Positions 2,249-60,612 of a stretch of 64,000 nucleotides of DNA are shown here, one piece after another; within the stretch, counting starts at the first letter, position 1; each line of letters starts with the position of its first letter. Source of the DNA: an uncultured virus (IMG/VR IMGVR_UViG_3300020048_000030). Lineage: Duplodnaviria; Heunggongvirae; Uroviricota; Caudoviricetes. The notes under the pieces are model-generated. The model was given only the letters and a program-made list of their open reading frames with translations, did not search any database and was not told the DNA's origin. A program made the translations under genes and the position numbers. Location of the stretch: IMG/VR virus record IMGVR_UViG_3300020048_000030. One strand, given 5' to 3'.

Positions 2249-4216
2249 ATGAAACAGATAAAACATACTATACTTATAATTGAAGATAATATTAATTTAA
2301 GTAACTTAATTTCAGAAACAATAGAAAAATTAGGATATAATACCCATTGTATTAATAGTGCAGAAGATGCATTAATTTGGTTAAAATCAAATACACCTTT
2401 TTTAATGATATTAGATTATATTCTTCCTAATATGAATGGGAAAGAAATGATTATTAAGTTAAAAGAAATGTATAATACTATACCACCGTTTATAATTGCA
2501 ACAGGTAGTGGAAATGAGCACTTATTTATTGATATGATGAAATTAGGTGCTAAAGATTATTTAATAAAAGATAAAAATTTTATTGATATATTACCAATAA
2601 TAATTGATTTAATTGAACAAGATGTTAAAAATGAAAATAAATTTAAAAATTCAGTAAAAGAATTAGCTAGACAAAAAAAATTCTTTGAACAAATGTTTAT
2701 GCAATCTAATATAAGTACACAAATATTAGATAAAGATGGTTGGTGTGAAAAAATAAATCCTGAATTAACTGAATTATTTGGTGTAGAACCTAAAGATATT
2801 GAAGGTAAAATTTATAATATTTTTAAAGATCAATCAATTATTGATAATGGATTAATACCTAAATTAGAAAAAGTTTTTTATGATAAAAAAGCATTAGAAT
2901 GGGAAGTTTTATTTGATATTGGTATTGCAGCAGATTCACAAAATATTAAAATAAAAGAAAGAAAAATAAAATGGATTTATACTAGGGCATATCCAATATT
3001 AGATGAACTGGAAAATCTTATCAATGTTATAATTCAACACCGTGATATTACAGATCAGAAAAACTTTGAAATTGATTTAATTAAAGCCAAAGAAAAAGCA
3101 GAAGAATCAGATAGATTAAAATCAGAATTTTTGGCCAATATGAGTCATGAAATAAGAACCCCTATGAATTCAATATTAGGTTTTTCAAGTTTAATTAATA
3201 AAGATACTCCTATTAAAAAAATAGAAGATTATATACATATTATACAAAGTTCTGGTAATCTATTAATAACCCTAATAGATGATGTTATTGAATTATCTAA
3301 AATACAATCAGGTATATTTAAAATAGAAAAAGATTATTCTGATATAAAAAATATGATGATTAGGACAGAAGAAGAATATAATCAACAAATATTAAATAAA
3401 AATAAAAATATAAATTTAATTTTAGAAATAGGTGGTAAATGCGAAACTTATACTGACCTAAGAAGGGTAAAACAAGTTCTTAATAATTTAGTAAATAATG
3501 CAATAAAATTTACAAATGAAGGTACTATAACTTATGGATATAATATTGTGGATGATATTATTATATTTTTTGTTAAAGACACTGGAATTGGGATAATAAA
3601 AGAAAATATTGATAAAATTTTTGATAGATTTCACCAAATTATAGACAAAAGTTATAAAAAACAAGAAGGAACCGGACTTGGATTAACTATAAGTAAAGCA
3701 ATTGTTAATCTATTAAATGGTGAAATATGGGTAGATTCTGTGTATGGTATAGGATCAGTATTTTATTTTACTATACCATTAGATAATAATCTAAAACAAA
3801 TAATAAAACCAATGGCAAAACCAATTAAAAAACAATATGATTGGAGTAATAAAAAAGTATTGATTGTTGAGGATGATGAAACAAATTATACATTAATGGA
3901 AATAGTTTTAACACAAACAAAAATAAATATAACACATGCTATTGATGGAAATAATTTTTATAAATTAATAACAAAAGATGTATATGATATTATATTATTA
4001 GACTTACAACTACCAGATATATCTGGATATGAGTTATTAAAATATATTAAAAATAATACAAATATACCAGTAATCATTCAATCTGCTTATGCATCTATTG
4101 ATTTTATAAATAATGCAAAAAATTTAGGTGCAGATGGATTTACTATAAAACCTATAATATGGGATAAATTATTTTTAGAAATTGATATATTAATTAACCA
4201 ACAAAATTACCACTAA
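2249..4216 (+). CDS. Hybrid sensor histidine kinase (REC-PAS-HisKA-HATPase-REC)
   Basis: H-box [14 protein letters not shown]-box [22 protein letters not shown]; receiver domains at both ends ([14 protein letters not shown]). Confidence 0.93.
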
Positions 4217-22594: not shown

Positions 22595-23122
22595 TTATTT
22601 TCTTGGTTTTAATATTATAATCAATTTATTACCTTCTAATTGTGGTAAACTTTCTACTAAACAATAATCAGCCAAATCATTTGCTAATTTTAATAACATA
22701 ATTTCACCTTTTTCTTTAAATTTAATTTCTCTTCCTTTAAAGATTACAAATGCTCTAACCTTATCACCATCTTCTAAGAATTTTTGTGCATGTCTTTTCT
22801 TGAATTCAAAATCATGATCATCTGTATTGGGACCAAATCTTAATTCTTTTAATTCCATCTTGTTTTCTCTATTCTTCTTTTCCTGTTCTTTTTGTTTTTT
22901 CTTTTGTTCATAGAGATACTTACTTATTTCCATTATCTTACATACTGGTGGAACTGCATTAGGACTGATTTCAATTAAATCTAATCCTAATTCATCTGCC
23001 AATGATATTGCATCTTTAGTATCATAAATACCAGTTTCTATATTATCTCCAACTAATCTTACTTCAGATACTCTTATCTGATTGTTAATTTTAAAAGTTA
23101 CTTCTTTTTGTTTTTTAGCCAT
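22595..23122 (-). CDS. infC: Translation initiation factor IF-3
   Basis: INNQIRVSEVRLVG, LDLIEISPNAVPPVCKIM, KELRFGPNTDDHDFEFK, GDKVRAFVIFKGRE. Confidence 0.95.
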   Translation of the reverse strand: MAKKQKEVTFKINNQIRVSEVRLVGDNIETGIYDTKDAISLADELGLDLIEISPNAVPPVCKIMEISKYLYEQKKKQKEQEKKNRENKMELKELRFGPNTDDHDFEFKKRHAQKFLEDGDKVRAFVIFKGREIKFKEKGEIMLLKLANDLADYCLVESLPQLEGNKLIIILKPRK

Positions 23123-24642: not shown

Positions 24643-25902
24643 CTAAGAAAATTCATTATTTTCAAAAATTATTTCTTCTTGTTTCATTCTATCATAACTT
24701 TTTAGGGGAATTACTTCCTTGTCATCCATTAGAGGACAGTCCACAAGCGTAAATTTGGGATAATGCATCCCTATTAAAATTCTTTTTCCTTCATTTTCTA
24801 TGTTTATTGCTGCATTAAAATCTCTGTTATGTATTGTTCCACACTCAGAACAAGTCCATTCCCTTTCTTTTAATGATAATTCTTTGTATTTATGTCCACA
24901 TACTGAACACAACTTCGAAGAAGGAAACCACCTATCAATAACAATTAGATTTCTTCCATACCACTCAGATTTATATTTTAATTGTCTGAATGTTTCACCA
25001 ATTGAAAGGCCTTGAATTGATTTTGATAATTTATGGTTTTTTATCATACCTTTAACATTTAAATCTTCAATTACAATCGTTTGGTTTTCACGTACTAATT
25101 GAGATGTAATGTTATGTATGTAATTTATCTTTATATTATTTAACTTTTCATGAAATTTTGCTAATTTAATTCTTTGTTTATTTTTGTTTTTTGATCCATT
25201 TATTTTTTTGGATAATTGTCTATGTAATTTAACTAACATTTTTTCATTTTTATATTTAAGTTTTAAATTATCAAACACTTGACCATTAGAACAAACCATA
25301 AAATCTTTAATTCCAATGTCAATTCCGATAATATTATTAATAGGTGATTTAATTGGTTCAATAATATTTTCAATTAAAATTGATAAAAAATATTTATTTG
25401 TTTTTGATCTTGAAATGGTAGCAGATCTTATTTTATCTTTATGATTTGTTAAATAATTTTTATCTTTATCAGAACATTCAAATTTTATCTTTTTTAATTG
25501 TTTTGTTAATGTAATTTTATTATCTGAATATATATTTTTATTAGACATTGCTTCTGATGGAAATCTTGCAGACTGTTTATTATTGTGTTTTGATTTGTAT
25601 TTAGGAAATCCATTTCCGTTAATAAAAAATCTTTTATAAGCATCTAATAGATCAATAATAGATTGTTTTAATACTTTTGTATTATGTTCTTGTAAATAAT
25701 TAAATTCTGTTGATTTTATTAATTCTTGATGAAAAAATTTCCCTAAACCACTAAGTGATATATTTGTTTTGTCTAATGTATATGCAGTTATTTTTTTATT
25801 CAAACATAAATTATATACTTTCCTATATGAACCACATAATCTATTTATATAATTTGATTGTGTTTTATTTGGATATATTCTTATTTTAATTGCTTTTATC
25901 AT
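24643..25902 (-). mobile_element. tnpB: RNA-guided nuclease TnpB (IS200/IS605 family), no adjacent TnpA
   Basis: N-terminal KIRIYPN HTH, RuvC residues GIDIG / IEDL / RDFNAAINI, zinc finger CSVC..CSEC. Confidence 0.92.
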
Positions 25903-33193: not shown

Positions 33194-33209
33194 CAAAGTT
33201 CTTTAAAAT

Positions 33210-47974: not shown

Positions 47975-48012
47975 TAAATTATAATATATAAAGTATAGTT
48001 CTTTAAAATAAT

Positions 48013-48299
48013 GGCTCGGTGATGAAATTGGTATACATGATGGACTTAGATATAAATTTGAGTGCCCTTATGGAAATGTAAGGAGTAGAACTTGTCAAAT
48101 TCGGGGAAACCTTTAAAATGGTAATCCCGATCCAAACCTTGAAAAAGGGAGGAGTAGAGACTTAACGGCAAGCACCTAAATAGAAATATATGGTGAAGAG
48201 AAAGTCCAGACCACAAACTTAATAGGTAATGAAAATTATAGTGGTAAGAAAATCCATTGGTTAGTGATAATCGTGCGGGTTCAAGTCCCGCCCGAGCTA
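48013..48299 (+). tRNA. tRNA-Leu(TAA) interrupted by a group I intron
   Basis: 5' exon 48013-48047 (..ATGGACTT), 3' exon 48249-48299 (AAAATCCAT..GGTTCAAGTCC..CCGAGCTA). Confidence 0.88.
48048..48248 (+). mobile_element. group I intron (IC3-like, ~201 nt, no ORF)
   Basis: AAATTCGGGGAA (P), AATCCCGATCC (Q), GTAGAGACT (R), AGAGAAAGTCC (S), terminal G; inserted after U34. Confidence 0.88.
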
Positions 48300-50344: not shown

Positions 50345-50843
50345 TTTGGAAAATAAATTAAACTTTTGTAATTTTGTTTCCTAAATTAAAAACATCTTTT
50401 GAAAAAAGATAAGGTTCTTTAAAATGTTGAGTTAAATAGTTGAAGATTAAACAACTAAAAGATTTTTTGAAAATAAGTGTCAAAAAATTTGGAAAATGAA
50501 AAAAGATGTTGTATCTTTGTAAGACAATTGGAAGATAAAATATCTGATTGAAAAAAGAAAAAAGTTTTTAAAAAATTTGGAAATTAAATTAAACTTTTAT
50601 ATCTTTGTTGAATATATAAATCACCTTTTAAAAATGGTGAAAAAAATAAAGAAAAAAGTTTTTAAAAAATTTGGAAATTAAATTAAACTTTTATATCTTT
50701 GTTGAATATAAAAATAGTTCTTTAAAATACTGAAATGATAATAAAAAAGATTTTTTGAAAATAAGTGTCAAAAAATTTGGAAAATCAAAAAAGATGTTGT
50801 ATCTTTGTAAAGTATTTAAAATGTAAAAATAGTTCTTTAAAAT
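50345..50843 (+). promoter_or_regulatory. array of five tandem Bacteroidota-type promoters with boxA-like GTTCTTTAAAAT motifs
   Basis: TTTGG at 50345, 50488, 50576, 50670 and 50776, each followed 24 nt later by TAnnTTTG. GTTCTTTAAAAT at ~50414, 50717 and 50832. Confidence 0.82.
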
Positions 50844-50845
50844 AT

Positions 50846-51474
50846 TGGGATAAAATTAGAGCGAAAGCGAAGAAGAGTAAAGTAAACTGTTCTCTGTCTG
50901 AAAATAGGGTCAAGGTTTGTGAAAATCTTGTGAAAATATCAGATATAAAAATCACTGATACGGATGTTGAAGTTGATTGTTTGAAATCGTAAAAAGTAAA
51001 CAGAATTCTAATTTAGGTCGTTTGTAGAGAATACATTGTAAAATGGAAATCGTAAAACATAAATTCTAAAAAAGATGTTGAAATTGTAGAAAGTAAAGAT
51101 TTGAAACCGTAGGGAGTAAGTTAAGTTGTTATATAAGTATAACAATGTTTACCTAAATGGGTAAAGTGGTTGAAACCATAGGTAGTAAAGCGAAAAATTT
51201 GAAACTGAAAGGAGTAAAATGATTGAAATCAAGGGAAGTAGGGAAACTGAAACCAAGGAAAGTAAAAGGATTGAAACTGAAAGGAGTAAAATGATTGAAA
51301 TCATAGGGAGTAAGTTTTTGAAACTGAAGGGAGTAATAAAGTTGTCATACTCAATATGACAATATTTATCTGAAAAGATAAAGGTGGTTCAAACCGAAAG
51401 TAGTAAAGTTACTGAAATCAAAGAAAGTAAACAACAGTTTTGAAATTCGTAGTGAGTAGCTCTTTTTTATCTCA
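50846..51474 (+). ncRNA. novel ~630-nt RNA with ~13-14 TGAAA-N8-AGTA hairpin units
   Basis: Ends pair (TGGGATAAAA..GAGC / GCTC..TTTTATCTCA; AAACTGTT/AACAGTTT); repeat units at about 24-nt spacing. Confidence 0.72.
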
Positions 51475-51480
51475 TTTTAT

Positions 51481-51646
51481 GGTCTGATCGTCTAGCGGTC
51501 AAAATTATAACAAAGACTTTATATGTTGCTCAGCAGTAAATAAAGTAGTTATAAAGGACAAAGCAAACTTATGATAGGTATGGAAATACAAGGAAGTTGA
51601 GAAAAATTGTAAAAGCTTTACATAGGTTCGAATCCTGTTCAGACTA
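51481..51646 (+). ncRNA. tRNA-scaffold RNA with large insertions in the D and anticodon loops
   Basis: GGTCTGA/TCAGACT acceptor, GTCT/GGAC D-stem, AAAGC/GCTTT stem, ATAGG-TTCGAAT-CCTGT T-arm. Confidence 0.65.
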
Positions 51647-51647
51647 C

Positions 51648-51685
51648 AAAAATGGAAAAAAGTGAAGTTTTTGTATAAATATATA
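51648..51685 (+). promoter_or_regulatory. phage late-type promoter upstream of GOLLD-like RNA 1
   Basis: AAAAATGGAAAAAAGTGA..TAAATATATA. Confidence 0.6.
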
Positions 51686-51739
51686 CAATCACCAACTTTT
51701 GAAAAAATGTTCTTTGATAATATTGAAAAGATAATATAT

Positions 51740-52689
51740 GGTTCTAATCCTTATAGACCTTACTTGAAAGGGTAAAAGTCTGAGGATGAAACGCAAGAGT
51801 TGAACCTAAGTAGTATTAATCATCGTGTGTGATGATATCTTTCTTCGGAAAGAGCAAATAATGTAAGGTGACTTACAAAAGGGGGAGTCTCTCAACTTCC
51901 CGCCAGGTCTTCGGATTTGGTTACAGCACACAAACTTCGTCTTTGTTGGCTACCCGCCAACAGATTCATCCGCAAGGACTGGATATAAGGAGTAAGTAAT
52001 GAGTACATGGTTCTTTGGTAAGAATAAGTCTTGTAAGCCCCCAGCAATGGGTAAGGAGCAAGATGAATAAGGGGTGACACCCACACCATTGCGTGTCAAC
52101 ATTATGAATTTGAAAGATAAGAAGTAGGTAATCTGTCAGAGTGTTGATAGCACAAAGGCTAATTATCAATACAAATGGTGAAAGGAGAAGTCCTGGAATT
52201 GTGAAGTATGGTACAGTAGGAATAATCAACCGAAACGCATGTTTAGTTAAGTATTTTGTATGACAAAATCTTATGAAGCTTTGTCTGAGCGCTAAACCGA
52301 GACCCTGATATTAGGGTTAAAATATCAACTATCTTAAAAATTAATATGATAATTAAAATTTGATAAAAAGCAAAGACTCAGACAAGTATATGACGAAAGT
52401 CGTTTAAGTCTTGACATCTTCGGATGAATCAAGATCACGGAAACTCGCAAGGTAGAAGTGTTTTATGGAAAGAAGCATCTAAGAGGTTAGCGCCTCTGAA
52501 TGGCTCGCAAGGTCAAGAGAATTTTGAACATAGAGTAATCATATACTGATAGTGGAAAAGCTACCACTTAAAATAAAGCAACGTCGCTGATAGACTTCCA
52601 TGAGGAAGTGGATAAGTGTAGAACCTTGGCCGCAAACTAAGGGTAATGACACGAAGGTATCGGTACTAAACCTGTAATCTCAAGGTTTT
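51740..52689 (+). ncRNA. GOLLD-like giant structured RNA (copy 1, ~950 nt)
   Basis: GC-elevated, ORF-poor, many GNRA/UUCG hairpins (GCAA, TTCG, GAAA). 3' domain CTCGCAAGG..GGAAA..GAGTA..GTGGATAAG..GTAATCTC resembles GOLLD as I recall it; not searched. Confidence 0.68.
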
Positions 52690-52694
52690 AAAAT

Positions 52695-52778
52695 AGTTCA
52701 GTCGTCTATTTTGGAGTACTTAATTTAAGTCAAGACACAATAACAATTGGAGATATGGTTCAAAACCTATCTGAACTA
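52695..52778 (+). ncRNA. tRNA-like RNA with truncated anticodon arm and D-loop hairpin insert
   Basis: AGTTCAG/CTGAACT acceptor; GTCT/AGAC; CAAT-AACA-ATTG; GGTTCAAAACC. Confidence 0.55.
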
Positions 52779-52956
52779 CAAAATCTGATATGTCAAAATA
52801 ACTGATTTAGTAGTAAGTGAACCTGCTTTACAAAAGTTCACCCTCTAAGAACATCATTCACTCTTAGGTTGATGGTTGAAATGGGTAAGGAATACCATAC
52901 ATTCCAATAAAAACCACTATGTTTAAAACCCCTTAAAAGGTATAGTAGTAATTTGT

Positions 52957-53021
52957 AATCAAGTAGCTCAGTGTTGAGAGCGGTCGAAAGACAGGTCAGT
53001 GGTTCAGCGCCATTCTTGAAA
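52957..53021 (+). ncRNA. mini tRNA-like RNA with anticodon arm replaced by GTC-GAAA-GAC
   Basis: TCAAG/CTTGA, TAGCTCAG..GAGC D-arm, AGTGG-TTCAGCG-CCATT T-arm. Confidence 0.6.
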
Positions 53022-53094
53022 ACAAATAATTATGTTTAAAACCCTTCAGAAAGGCATAGTAGTGGTTTGTTTTTATTGTTCTTTGAATAATGAT

Positions 53095-53993
53095 ATTTCC
53101 TATGCTTGAATAGGAATCCGTAAGGAAGAGATAATATATCGTAAGATATAAAAAGGATAGACATCCATTTGTTTATTCACCTTAAATCCCAATTTAAGGC
53201 CAAATCAAGCAACTCCTTGCTCACCTTTACTGAAAAAGGGTTTCTCTTCGGAGGAAATAAGAGGAAGATAAGTTTTTAGGAACTTTGGAAAGTATGGAAT
53301 TTCTTACTTGCCTGTAAAGGGAACAAGGGAAATTTAATAAAGAACTATGGTGGTTCATATCCTAAATTACCAACCTTATCGTCTCAGAATTGTAAAAGGA
53401 AGATAGTAAAATAGTCCAAGTGATGCAAAAGTAAGGGCGACTATCAGTATTAAGGTTTTGAAAAGAATCTGAAATACCGCACAAGTAGGTTTAGCAGACT
53501 GAAAATGTAAACTAAGGGTCGGATTTTTTTCTTCAAAAGAGAATGAAACGGTGAACAGGCACTTAGTAATGGAAAAACAAAATTAGCTCAGTTGGCAGAG
53601 CAATTGGCTTCTAACCAATAGGTCATAGGTTCAATTCCTATAATTTGTAAAAAAGCGAAGTCCTGTTCAACATCAGTAAGAAAAGACGCTTAATTCTTGA
53701 CATCTCCGGATGAATCAAGAGCAACTGAAACTCGCAAGGTGAATGTTGTTTGATGGAAAATCACACTTAGGGATTAATTATCTCAAACTGTCCGCAAGAT
53801 AGGAGGCCGATTGAACATCGAGTAGTACTGGTGGTAATAAAGTTAGTCAATCTTTAAAATGGCAGCGTTGCTTGACTAAACTATGATTGAAGGGAAACCT
53901 TAATTATAGTGGATAAGTAAAGAACATGAAGAATAGCATCTTTATGATAATGTTACGAAGGTGTCAAGTGAAAACCAGTAGTCTCATGGTTTT
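53095..53993 (+). ncRNA. GOLLD-like giant structured RNA (copy 2, ~900 nt) with embedded tRNA
   Basis: 3' ~350 nt collinear with copy 1 (TCTTGACATCTyCGGATGAATCAAGA, GAAACTCGCAAGGT, TTGAACAT.GAGTA, GTGGATAAGT, ACGAAGGT, GTArTCTCA.GGTTTT). Confidence 0.68.
53577..53649 (+). tRNA. tRNA-Arg(TCT), nested in GOLLD-like copy 2
   Basis: TAGCTCAGTTGGCAGAGC; ATTGG-CTTCTAA-CCAAT; GGTTCAATTCC. Confidence 0.82.
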
Positions 53994-54000
53994 AAATTTT

Positions 54001-54036
54001 AAACCCCTTAATCTTCCGAGGATTAAGGGGTTTTTT
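54001..54036 (+). terminator. intrinsic terminator closing the ncRNA operon
   Basis: AAACCCCTTAATC-loop-GATTAAGGGGTTT-T run. Confidence 0.88.
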
Positions 54037-58905: not shown

Positions 58906-60612
58906 TTAGATTAAATAACCATGAACATCAGTTACATGAAGAGCCATAAATTGTTTTTCTGGGAAGAAACCAACATCTGCTACTGCATATCTTGAACGAA
59001 TTAACATTCTAGGAGCCCAAGTTGCTTCACTGATAAGTGATATAGACTGTGCCATCAAATATGGAAGGAATAATAGACCTGGTTGATCTACTGAATTCTT
59101 TCTACCTAAGAATACTCTATTATCATCCCATCTCATATAAGGGTCAACGTACAAGGTCATATTACCTACTTTACCCACTGGGTATAATTGACCATTTGTA
59201 TTAAGGTTTGAACCACCTACAACTGGATTAAGTGTATAACCTGCGATGTCTTGAATAATTGAAGCAACATTACCATTTGTTACAATGTATTGTGCTGGTC
59301 CTACTCTACCTTCATTTGCAATATAGTTAGAAGCATTATTAATCTTAGATAATAATTTTCTTTGTGCTGCATGTGAAGTTTCACCACCTGGTGCTTGTAC
59401 TGCAAAATATGTATCAACATCAAAGTCAAATTTTGATACACCTGCTACTTTAGGAGTTGTGTGTGATAATCTGTTTAATTCAGCTAATTTTTTAACACTT
59501 TCAACAATTTCTTTAGAAATAGTTTGTGAAAGTTCGTTAATAAGAACTGATTCAAGTTTTTGAACAATGTCCATACCTGTTGAAGCTTTAATATCTTCAA
59601 TTTCTGTTCTTTTAAGAGCTGAAGTGATTTCGATGTCACCAACTTGGATAGTTTTTGTGAAAACATTTGGTCCAATTTGACCTGGATAAGTATTTTCATC
59701 TTCTTTTCTGTTCATACCTTTGAAAAGATTCCAACCTGCTGAGAATCCAGGAATATGATCTTCCATTAATGATACTAATTCAATAGTTGCTCCAGTTAAT
59801 GCAACAGTTACAACAGATGTTACTGTTCCTGATGTTCCACTTGCTGTTATTAATAATCTACCATCTAAAATAGAAACCATTGAAGTTGTTGTATTATCAA
59901 ATGTATTTTTACTTGCATCTGCTGTTCCTGGATAGAAACCTCTTTCAACTGCTTGTCTGAAAATTCTAAACATTGGAGTTCCATCAATTCTGGAAAAACC
60001 TAAAAATTCCATCCAACCTGCTTTGTTATCTGGTGCTGAAGTTGTAAAAGAACCAGTAACAACTGTACCTGTGGTTAAACCACTTAATGCTACAAAACAT
60101 CTTTTATCAAGTCCACCAACCATTTCAGTGATACCTAATGCTTTTAATTCAGCATAAAGATTTGTTTTAAGTGTATCTGCATTTGTAACTGTTAATTTGA
60201 ATACTAATGGTCTATCACCATCTTCTTCTAAGTTAGGATCATCATAACGGAAGTCAACAAATAAAAGGTCAACTTTTGGTGATGCTGCTGGTTTTACAGC
60301 TACTAGGTCAAGACCAATAGTTTGTGCTGCAATTTTCATTGAAATAGGAAGTAAGTTTTGACCAACGTCACCTGAACCTACTGAACCATCTCCACCCCAT
60401 ACTTGTCCTGGAGTTGTTGAAGGTTGTGCTGCTTGAACTGCACCCATACCTCTAATATTTCCTAATGTTGCATAAGAAACATTTTCATTTAACTGATGTA
60501 ACTCAGCGTATTCTGCCATCCATGCTCTTTTTTCAAAGTCTGATACATGTAATGCTTCAAGAATTGGTGACCATTTCTTTTCTGCTTTTGCTTTATCTAC
60601 TATAAAATTCAT
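58906..60612 (-). CDS. Major capsid protein (T4 gp23-like)
   Basis: KKWSPILE, DLVAVKP, INELSQTISKE, GPAQYIVT, LYVDPY, GLLFLPY, PRMLIRSRYA. Confidence 0.88.
   Translation of the reverse strand: MNFIVDKAKAEKKWSPILEALHVSDFEKRAWMAEYAELHQLNENVSYATLGNIRGMGAVQAAQPSTTPGQVWGGDGSVGSGDVGQNLLPISMKIAAQTIGLDLVAVKPAASPKVDLLFVDFRYDDPNLEEDGDRPLVFKLTVTNADTLKTNLYAELKALGITEMVGGLDKRCFVALSGLTTGTVVTGSFTTSAPDNKAGWMEFLGFSRIDGTPMFRIFRQAVERGFYPGTADASKNTFDNTTTSMVSILDGRLLITASGTSGTVTSVVTVALTGATIELVSLMEDHIPGFSAGWNLFKGMNRKEDENTYPGQIGPNVFTKTIQVGDIEITSALKRTEIEDIKASTGMDIVQKLESVLINELSQTISKEIVESVKKLAELNRLSHTTPKVAGVSKFDFDVDTYFAVQAPGGETSHAAQRKLLSKINNASNYIANEGRVGPAQYIVTNGNVASIIQDIAGYTLNPVVGGSNLNTNGQLYPVGKVGNMTLYVDPYMRWDDNRVFLGRKNSVDQPGLLFLPYLMAQSISLISEATWAPRMLIRSRYAVADVGFFPEKQFMALHVTDVHGYLI

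Follow-up and report, generated by a model that had tools for sequence, protein, structure and literature searches.

A candidate modular RNA gene with many copies of one putative binding motif in the RNA operon of a huge phage

On the plus strand of the DNA analysed here, a 64,000-nt stretch from an uncultured huge phage (hereafter the window), a tandem array of short modules occupies positions 50846–51474. This array is very probably an expressed RNA gene of a new family. The fuller reading, to which we give about even credence, is that it encodes a stable, modular non-coding phage RNA carrying many copies of one putative binding motif, as a sponge or scaffold would; the sponge or scaffold function taken by itself, as suggested by the sequence, is put forward tentatively. 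An Rfam 15 scan of 50846–51474 matched no family, whether at the gathering score or with the limit relaxed to E ≤ 1, so that an earlier, sequence-only reading of this DNA, which had recognised no family for the element, agrees with the scan even at that limit. In the literature on GOLLD/ROOL, phage tRNA islands and tandem sarcin-ricin hairpin RNAs, we found no description of the array. We rate it as an uncatalogued RNA family of a known general kind, the repeated-motif non-coding RNAs, with an unusual module; judging by Rfam scans and literature search, it would be the first case in nature of sarcin-ricin-type hairpins arranged in tandem.

Modules of the array and their relatives

Within the 64-kb window, the pattern GAAA-N8-AGTA occurs 16 times against 4.78 expected, a number reached in 0 of 100 shuffles, and 11 of the 16 matches fall in 50983–51429, every one on the plus strand. 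A weight matrix trained on 39 modules of other loci alone and applied with a cut-off of 20 bits found 12 sites at 20–29 bits, exclusively within 50980–51432 (+). When a leave-one-locus-out matrix was used (≥15 bits), there were 12 matches in the array and none elsewhere on both strands of the 64 kb. The 12 strong modules identified by these pattern and matrix searches (50980–51432, +) are ~24 nt long, with the consensus UUGAAA-YYRNARRR-AGUAAA, and their 22-nt matrix windows start at 50980, 51077, 51100, 51169, 51198, 51222, 51246, 51270, 51294, 51317, 51387 and 51411. Matrix sites coincide with 12 of the 13 main unit starts that the sequence-only reading had proposed, one of which (51389) reads CAAA, not GAAA; its remaining unit at 51441 and a weaker one at 50862 were found as variants with a 9-nt middle. 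Besides the strong modules, the array has two to three degenerate ones, and its last module (51438–51461, +), a 9-nt-middle variant kept in the related loci L012 and L041, adjoins the 3′ arm of the terminal helix. By eye, a degenerate module copy is also seen near 51046 (repeat family D8).

AGUA is present in 12/12 strong window modules and retained in eight of nine aligned partners in L012, and GAAA is present in 11/12, the other having CAAA. GAAA lies on the 5′ side, at a spacing of 8 nt from AGUA (7–10 nt in the related locus L046). Together, 49 distinct modules drawn from five loci give the consensus (U)U-GAAA-YYRNARRR-AGUA-A(A).

These five genomic loci, the window included, are those from which the array is known, and two of them, L012 and L041, are near-identical. 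Four pattern scans of IMG/VR gave 25, 1, 45 and 1 loci and one true contig, IMGVR_UViG_3300033514_000261 (L012, L026, L072 and L107 being pieces of a single IMG/VR contig). A metagenome pattern scan gave 23 loci with three true relatives (L041, L045 and L046), and a scan of genome contigs gave five loci with no true relative. All remaining pattern-scan loci were rejected as unrelated simple tandem repeats, many of them in giant-virus bins. A blastn search of 50,697 phage records matched 43 of them; among the 30 matches listed, none was on the array, and all were on tRNA-Arg except one on a 5′ part of GOLLD.

The relatives differ widely in module number. L012 has 22 canonical modules plus two variants (~24 in all) and keeps the order promoters, array, tRNA-like element and GOLLD, as well as the 5′ domain and the closing helix. 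L041, a near-copy of L012, has at least eight modules in an array cut by the contig end, with GOLLD downstream. In L045, the matrix finds six modules and the exact pattern five, plus about two GAAC variants by eye (~6–8); downstream, on the same strand as the array, is a strong intrinsic terminator with 14 pairs, and there is no GOLLD within its 3,018-nt contig. The L046 array begins right behind a promoter and runs off its contig after at least 27 modules by pattern (one overlap artefact dropped), with middles of 7–10 nt. Across relatives, module number thus ranges from ~6–8 to at least 27 and changes by whole units, both motifs being fixed. No proteins were common to the flanks of L045 or L046 and the window. 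Among published huge phage genomes, the five whose capsid proteins are closest all lacked the array (0/5); two isolated pattern matches in one of the huge phage genomes equalled the level of a reversed-pattern control and were dismissed. Two of the five genomes have GOLLD behind a similar tRNA-like element, in one of them also behind the motif GTTCTTTRAWW described below.

Tandem Repeats Finder (TRF) detected a period of 23–24 nt in the window array, with copies matching at just 67–80%, which indicates that the modules are old and diverged and form no fresh tandem repeat; within one array, modules are 67–73% alike. Over nine module pairs of the window and L012, the motif positions differed at 5/90 sites and the middles at 27/72 (Fisher p 6e-7, a comparison that is partly circular as the window modules were picked by motif). 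From these sequences, selection appears clearly to act on the UGAAA and AGUAA motifs. This bears on the possibility that the array, though transcribed, has no function and is a satellite-like expansion that sits in an operon spacer and persists by chance or through recombination drive. Copy number is indeed very unstable, and the L012 array contains higher-order repeats that are 72 and 96 nt long and match at 74–83%, which suggests recent unequal recombination. However, both 5-nt motifs are invariant against ~30% divergence of the rest, they also persist in two distant arrays, L045 and L046, that have no flanking protein in common with the window, and the closing helix and 5′ domain are conserved. 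A functionless expansion therefore seems rather improbable to us.

A repetitive protein with an 8-residue period is hardly tenable as the product of the array. Stop-free frames do run through the 24-nt array of L012, 123 aa on the plus strand and 222 and 176 aa on the minus strand, the latter being open because of the purine bias. In contrast, all frames within 50846–51474 are at most 79 aa from stop to stop on both strands, and the plus-strand frames of L046 are at most 56 aa. Spacings of 23 nt, and of 25–26 nt where middles have 9–10 nt, shift the frame. Moreover, third positions of the putative codons are among the invariant bases: GAA is never GAG and AGT never AGC in 49/49 modules (which were picked by these motifs), whereas first and second positions vary.

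Promoters, neighbouring RNAs and RNA libraries

The array had been placed behind a promoter cluster by the sequence-only reading, and five tandem promoters TTTG-N20-TAnnTTTG do precede it (50345–50807, +; at 50345, 50488, 50576, 50670 and 50776; repeat families D2 and D3). This pattern, which we take to be the Bacteroidota promoter consensus, is matched 15 times in the window (5.98 expected), and five of the matches cluster upstream of the array. A second motif, GTTCTTTRAWW, here as GTTCTTTAAAA (50832–50842, +), stands 3 nt ahead of the first base of the terminal helix. It has nine matches in the window against 1.51 expected, seven of them on the plus strand. Five of these plus-strand copies precede RNA starts, namely those of a tRNA, an intron-bearing tRNA, the array, GOLLD 1 and GOLLD 2, and the other two lie within the promoter cluster. 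GTTCTTTRAWW is possibly a phage promoter or a processing signal.

Directly 3′ of the array, and bounding its RNA, is a tRNA-like element (51481–51647, +) with acceptor, D-arm and T-arm but ~100 nt in place of the anticodon arm. ARAGORN made no call and Rfam gave no match for 51481–51647; in three acceptor pairs, both bases differ from those of L012. It is followed by GOLLD RNA copy 1 (51709–52686, +), whose RF02032 match (52241–52686; 168.2 bits, E 1.9e-45) begins ~770 nt downstream of the array and is preceded by a less conserved 5′ region. A second GOLLD copy at 53511–53990 is sub-threshold (118 bits, E 4.5e-32) and has a tRNA-Arg embedded. The sole terminator predicted on the downstream side is at 54001–54033, with none between 50.0 and 54.0 kb, and at 54 kb, where the gene strand switches, the genes converge. 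The order is thus array RNA, tRNA-like element, GOLLD 1, tRNA-like element, further RNAs, GOLLD 2 with tRNA-Arg, and terminator. With promoters upstream and the tRNA-like element, GOLLD copies and terminator downstream, the array appears to head an operon made up of RNA genes only, in a huge phage. The T4-type capsid protein of this phage shares 62% identity with its counterpart in an uncultured huge phage of 735 kb. Small ORFs upstream (48.3–50.3 kb) gave no RNA-binding Pfam domain and no informative match save a weak one to GNAT. A 15-nt complementarity between 51342–51356 and the start of GOLLD (52252–52266) is absent from L012 by eye and was taken as chance. The sequence-only reading had missed GOLLD, the tRNA-like element that bounds the array and the relatives of very different module number.

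Contigs of 4/4 RNA libraries, from four studies, map to 50.8–54.0 kb and to the intron-bearing tRNA at 48.0–48.4 kb, with the array among the parts covered. The mapping covered 46.0–58.0 kb with a cut-off of ≥88%, in runs selected for containing this stretch. Both array bins were covered in 4/4 RNA runs at depths of 0.02–4.2, with GOLLD reaching up to 172; being assembled contigs, these data do not give strand, ends or level. The coding flanks (46.0–48.0 and 54.0–58.0 kb) had next to no RNA contigs, although flanks of diverged relatives could miss the 88% cut-off. One 469-nt RNA contig, an L012-like variant, starts at 50867, enters the array and spans the 5′ domain and several modules. At GOLLD 1, RNA contigs start at 51753–51794. 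Some array RNA contigs are 54–168 nt long, a length that is uninformative alone, and among the RNA contigs listed 51313–51753 is unbridged, a gap that carries no evidential weight.

The array could alternatively be a part of the GOLLD system on the same transcript, as an extended 5′ appendage, an adaptor or a cargo of the RNA cage. At three of the five loci (window, L012 and L041), the array lies upstream of GOLLD in the same order, and the absence of a predicted terminator from 50.0 to 54.0 kb would suit a common transcript. GOLLD cages have also been proposed to enclose other molecules, and tRNAs are located in GOLLD linkers (bioRxiv 10.1101/2024.12.08.627333). We nonetheless consider a role as a GOLLD part improbable: the L045 array has its own terminator and no GOLLD in 3,018 nt, whereas two related huge phages have the tRNA-like element and GOLLD without the array, which is present in 0/5 such genomes. 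Furthermore, the tRNA-like element and the repeated start motif stand between array and GOLLD, a contig bridging the two is absent among the RNA contigs listed, and the array has no Rfam GOLLD signal at E ≤ 1. As array and GOLLD each occur alone, the array is best seen as an independent RNA gene that became linked with the GOLLD locus in a single lineage.

Strand, ends and the module hairpin

The whole array RNA (~630 nt; 50846–51474, +) is described here from its terminal helix, the Rfam scan and the RNA-library contigs. In the minimum free energy (MFE) fold, 50846–50862 pairs with 51458–51474 in a duplex of -17.6 kcal/mol. This helix is retained in L012 at -11.8 kcal/mol, with two G-C pairs changed to G-U by eye, and the pairing of the RNA ends that had been noticed in the sequence is thereby upheld. 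A non-repetitive 5′ domain with several ordinary hairpins (50846–50978, +) is near-identical in L012, the alignment of the two having one 1-nt gap across ~120 columns (78–200). Two further pairs of hairpins interrupt the modules, each with a module after it: copy 1 (51125–51165, +) has a 9-bp stem at 51125–51146 and a 7-bp stem at 51148–51165, and copy 2 (51341–51382, +) has its stems at 51341–51363 and 51365–51382. Among four paralogous copies (two in the window and two in L012), three of 20 predicted pairs have substitutions in both partners and all 20 stay intact, in line with the internal duplication with compensatory changes reported before.

The array folds better on the plus strand (-122.1 kcal/mol, z -4.21) than as the complement (-78.1 kcal/mol, z -2.69), and the MFE folds contain 22 G-U pairs on the plus strand versus six on the complement. 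The plus strand is purine-rich (purine fraction 0.64, GC skew ~0.5), and conserved stems of the array use G-U pairs that are possible only in RNA from this strand. The better plus-strand fold, the greater number of G-U pairs and the placement of modules on one strand match the modular, plus-strand, RNA-level feature that the sequence-only reading had described. The L045 array as a whole is unexceptional in fold stability (z -0.71).

These strand asymmetries also bear on whether the repeats act as DNA, as iterons or centromere-like sites for a replication or partition protein, with transcription being incidental. DNA iterons are double-stranded binding sites adjoining a replication gene. The array resembles them in that its direct repeats all point the same way, measure about two helical turns each, vary in number and occupy DNA free of genes, and both duplicated hairpins are also DNA palindromes. 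However, it belongs to a co-oriented RNA operon, with promoters ahead and, in L045, a terminator behind. Its purine bias is confined to one strand, and the G-U pairs of its stems would be C-A on the other. RNA contigs cover the array, no replication gene adjoins it, and the strand switch at 54 kb is convergent. We therefore regard action as DNA as very unlikely.

For the module itself, the favoured reading proposes a hairpin. GAA is the strand opposite AGUA in the sarcin-ricin/loop-E consensus. AGUA is named as a hallmark of sarcin-ricin loops, with the ‘7 x 6’ form as a common one (PMC13085918). In the modules, the possible pairings are between UU before GAAA and AA after AGUA, and between YY and the purines before AGUA, with the U of AGUA facing an A of GAAA; the five pyrimidines of the module sit exactly at the positions that the hairpin requires. 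GAAA opposite R-AGUA would fit the layout of the ‘7 x 6’ sarcin-ricin loop. The loops are RNA(R), for example GAA, GUA, GCA and AAG.

Pairing counts were compared with shuffled modules and with controls in which the partner column was slid by one. The triloop register had 80.6% standard pairs versus 78.1% in shuffled modules (31/500 shuffles as high), the tetraloop register 78.6% versus 77.5% (148/500 as high), and the slid controls gave values similar to both, so that the two registers are indistinguishable on pairing counts. By position, standard pairs were formed in 48/49 and 39/49 modules for the lower pairs and in 30/49 and 41/49 for the upper pairs. N2 and N6 alone stood out, being paired in 41/49 modules, against a shuffle mean of 35.4 and with 10/5000 shuffles as high, a count made on modules that are related by duplication. 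As 31/500 shuffles match the 80.6% pairing, covariation within the module is weak, and over 49 modules of five loci it did not stand out from shuffles or slid controls. The loop-E assignment made from sequence alone fits the AGUA/GAA pattern and the placement of pyrimidines, but the covariation within modules does not beat shuffles. Some support for the hairpin topology may come from the 7–10-nt middles of L046 and from a stem variant in L045, where one module, by eye, has in place of the cap an ACC/GGU stem of 3 bp that closes a 6-nt loop, flanked by GAAC and UAGUA. An alternative fold proposed by RNAalifold from four copies, in which a UGAA tetraloop is closed by upstream bases, was dropped (57.1% paired versus 57.0% shuffled, 49 modules). 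On balance, we consider it an even call, from the module sequences, that the module is a hairpin with an S-turn-type loop.

In the ribosomal sarcin-ricin hairpin, the cap is on the opposite side of the loop from that of the array module. As this orientation is reversed, the module would be no literal mimic of a ribotoxin target, and it is unlikely that the array acts as a literal ribotoxin decoy.

Possible function and comparison with known systems

In the mechanism that we propose, the array would be transcribed from the stacked promoters, perhaps also from the GTTCTTT element, its 3′ end could be freed by RNase P or RNase Z acting at the adjacent tRNA-like element, and the closing helix would shield the RNA ends. 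Each module would form a mini-hairpin with two basal U-A pairs, a sarcin-ricin/loop-E-type internal loop (GAAA opposite RAGUA) and two Y-R pairs capped by a 3–4-nt purine loop, and would offer one candidate binding site. Most speculatively, a dozen or more identical sites might serve, during infection, to titrate a single factor of the host or the phage, or to scaffold it. That 6 to at least 27 modules are tolerated, but not motif change, suggests multivalent binding of this kind, with titration or scaffolding of one factor. A bolder version, which we hold to be possible but doubtful, is a new phage RNA class: huge phages would use stacked promoters to produce large amounts of an RNA with a dozen to several dozen mini-hairpins of sarcin-ricin type. 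Such an RNA would catch or organise a single host factor, involved in translation or defence, or else load the adjacent GOLLD cage, and unequal recombination would adjust module number to how much target is present.

GOLLD and ROOL are large, abundant phage RNAs whose structures have been solved as RNA-only cages, and the array RNA shares an operon with two GOLLD copies in a huge phage. Its simple repetitive design makes it directly testable. A defined partner, if found, would expose a host pathway targeted by huge phages and might offer the first functional handle on the GOLLD locus.

The array resembles GOLLD and ROOL in its niche in a phage tRNA/RNA island, its size of several hundred nucleotides and its presence in RNA libraries, and it is co-oriented with the GOLLD copy that it precedes by 770 nt. 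It differs in that it has no RF02032 match at the gathering score or at E ≤ 1 and consists of tandem repeats of variable number, whereas GOLLD is one fixed ornate fold; as described above, the array occurs without GOLLD in L045 and GOLLD without the array in two related huge phage genomes.

With ToxI and pseudo-ToxI, the array shares tandem RNA repeats, which in phage-borne versions are known to expand in copy number. It might accordingly be a precursor that is cut to module-length small RNAs, either neutralisers of a host endoribonuclease, of the ToxI/pseudo-ToxI type, or a guide-RNA array. Its tandem units lie on one strand behind strong promoters, its A-rich single-stranded linkers would be cleavable, and module number expands among relatives; pseudo-ToxI reportedly expanded in a phage escaping ToxIN. 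ToxI-type repeats, however, are 34–45 nt long and near-identical, with a toxin gene next to them, whereas the array units are of 24 nt and 67–73% alike, no toxin or Tas gene is next to them, and RNAs without any protein gene extend downstream up to 54.0 kb. The 469-nt RNA contig, moreover, covers the 5′ domain and several modules uncut. As for guide RNAs, TIGR arrays are likewise phage-borne and alternate conserved short motifs with short variable segments, and their description (PMC12045711) gives a unit length of 36 nt, edge and loop repeats separated by two unconstrained spacers of ~9 nt, box C/D motifs and an adjacent Tas gene with a Nop domain. In contrast, the array has a period of 24 nt, a lone variable segment of 8 nt that is constrained to YYRNARRR, unlike TIGR spacers, and no box C/D, and a Nop domain was found in 0/39 ORFs of ≥120 aa within the 64-kb window. 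We hold a precursor of small RNAs to be unlikely; the coding, TIGR, ToxI-type and GOLLD-domain readings of the array fail their tests.

The favoured reading of the array as a multi-site RNA has its likenesses among other non-coding RNAs. Dictyoglomi-1 RNA (RF01703), which also bears several sarcin-ricin-type loops, has four such conserved motifs in a fixed fold (PMC13085918), whereas the window array and its larger relatives have 12 to at least 27 putative, near-identical mini-hairpins in tandem and match no model. CsrB and RsmZ differ from the array in presenting GGA in hairpin loops, where the array has UGAAA...AGUAA with a purine loop and no Rfam match, and CsrA is not known from Bacteroidota. 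The likeness is one of design: in CsrB, 12 CsrA-binding motifs were found by CaCoFold-R3D (PMC12510878), and in both cases a short motif is repeated a dozen times or more per RNA, in a number that varies among relatives. By this analogy, the repeated-motif design of the array would be the architecture expected of a titrating RNA.

The second GOLLD copy

Downstream of the first GOLLD RNA (51709-52686, + strand), a second copy was detected at 53511-53990 on the same strand (E 4.5e-32), scoring 118 bits against the Rfam gathering score of 150 bits. Its 5' part probably starts at ~53090 (+). A tRNA-Arg (53577-53649) is embedded within this copy, which is followed by a terminator at 54001-54033. 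In run X18, one of the four RNA-library runs, its RNA-contig depth was the highest in the RNA island apart from that of the first copy. The stretch at 52800-53080 (+) contains no genes and gave no Rfam match at E<=1; it carries a ~40-nt element in two copies and a piece similar to a tRNA 5' half, and RNA contigs covered it lightly.

tRNA-like elements and an intron-bearing tRNA

GOLLD copy 1 is flanked by two + strand tRNA-like elements, at 51481-51647 and ~52696-52783, each with an acceptor and T-arm and lacking a normal anticodon arm. Comparison of the first with its counterpart in L012, a related IMG/VR contig, revealed three compensatory acceptor pairs. Similar elements lie upstream of GOLLD in the huge phage records LR745206 and LR756502, and these elements may serve as processing handles. 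In L012, an extra ~230-nt block (~3330-3560), absent from the window, separates the tRNA-like element from the 5' region of GOLLD.

At 48038-48228, a small group I intron (Rfam RF00028, 60.5 bits) splits a further tRNA gene (48012-48298, +); the intron was not among the matches of an Rfam gathering scan of the whole window. In each of the four runs, RNA contigs covered this gene.

A motif upstream of RNA starts

The motif GTTCTTTRAWW occurs nine times in the window, versus 1.5 expected, with + strand matches at 33198, 47998, 50414, 50717, 50832, 51709 and 53078. Five of these seven stand just upstream of identified RNA starts: those of tRNA-Trp, the intron-bearing tRNA, the array of ~24-nt modules and both GOLLD copies. 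Locus L108 has a match at ~989, and in LR745206 the motif likewise precedes GOLLD. It may represent a phage-specific promoter or processing signal.

Protein-coding genes and huge-phage similarity

Genes on the - strand encode a cytosine DNA methylase (1-2172) interrupted by an intein that contains a LAGLIDADG domain, translation initiation factor IF3 (22595-23122), a TnpB/IS605 OrfB-type protein (24643-25902) and a Gp23-type capsid protein (58906-60612), the last sharing 62% identity with its counterpart in a 735-kb uncultured huge phage.
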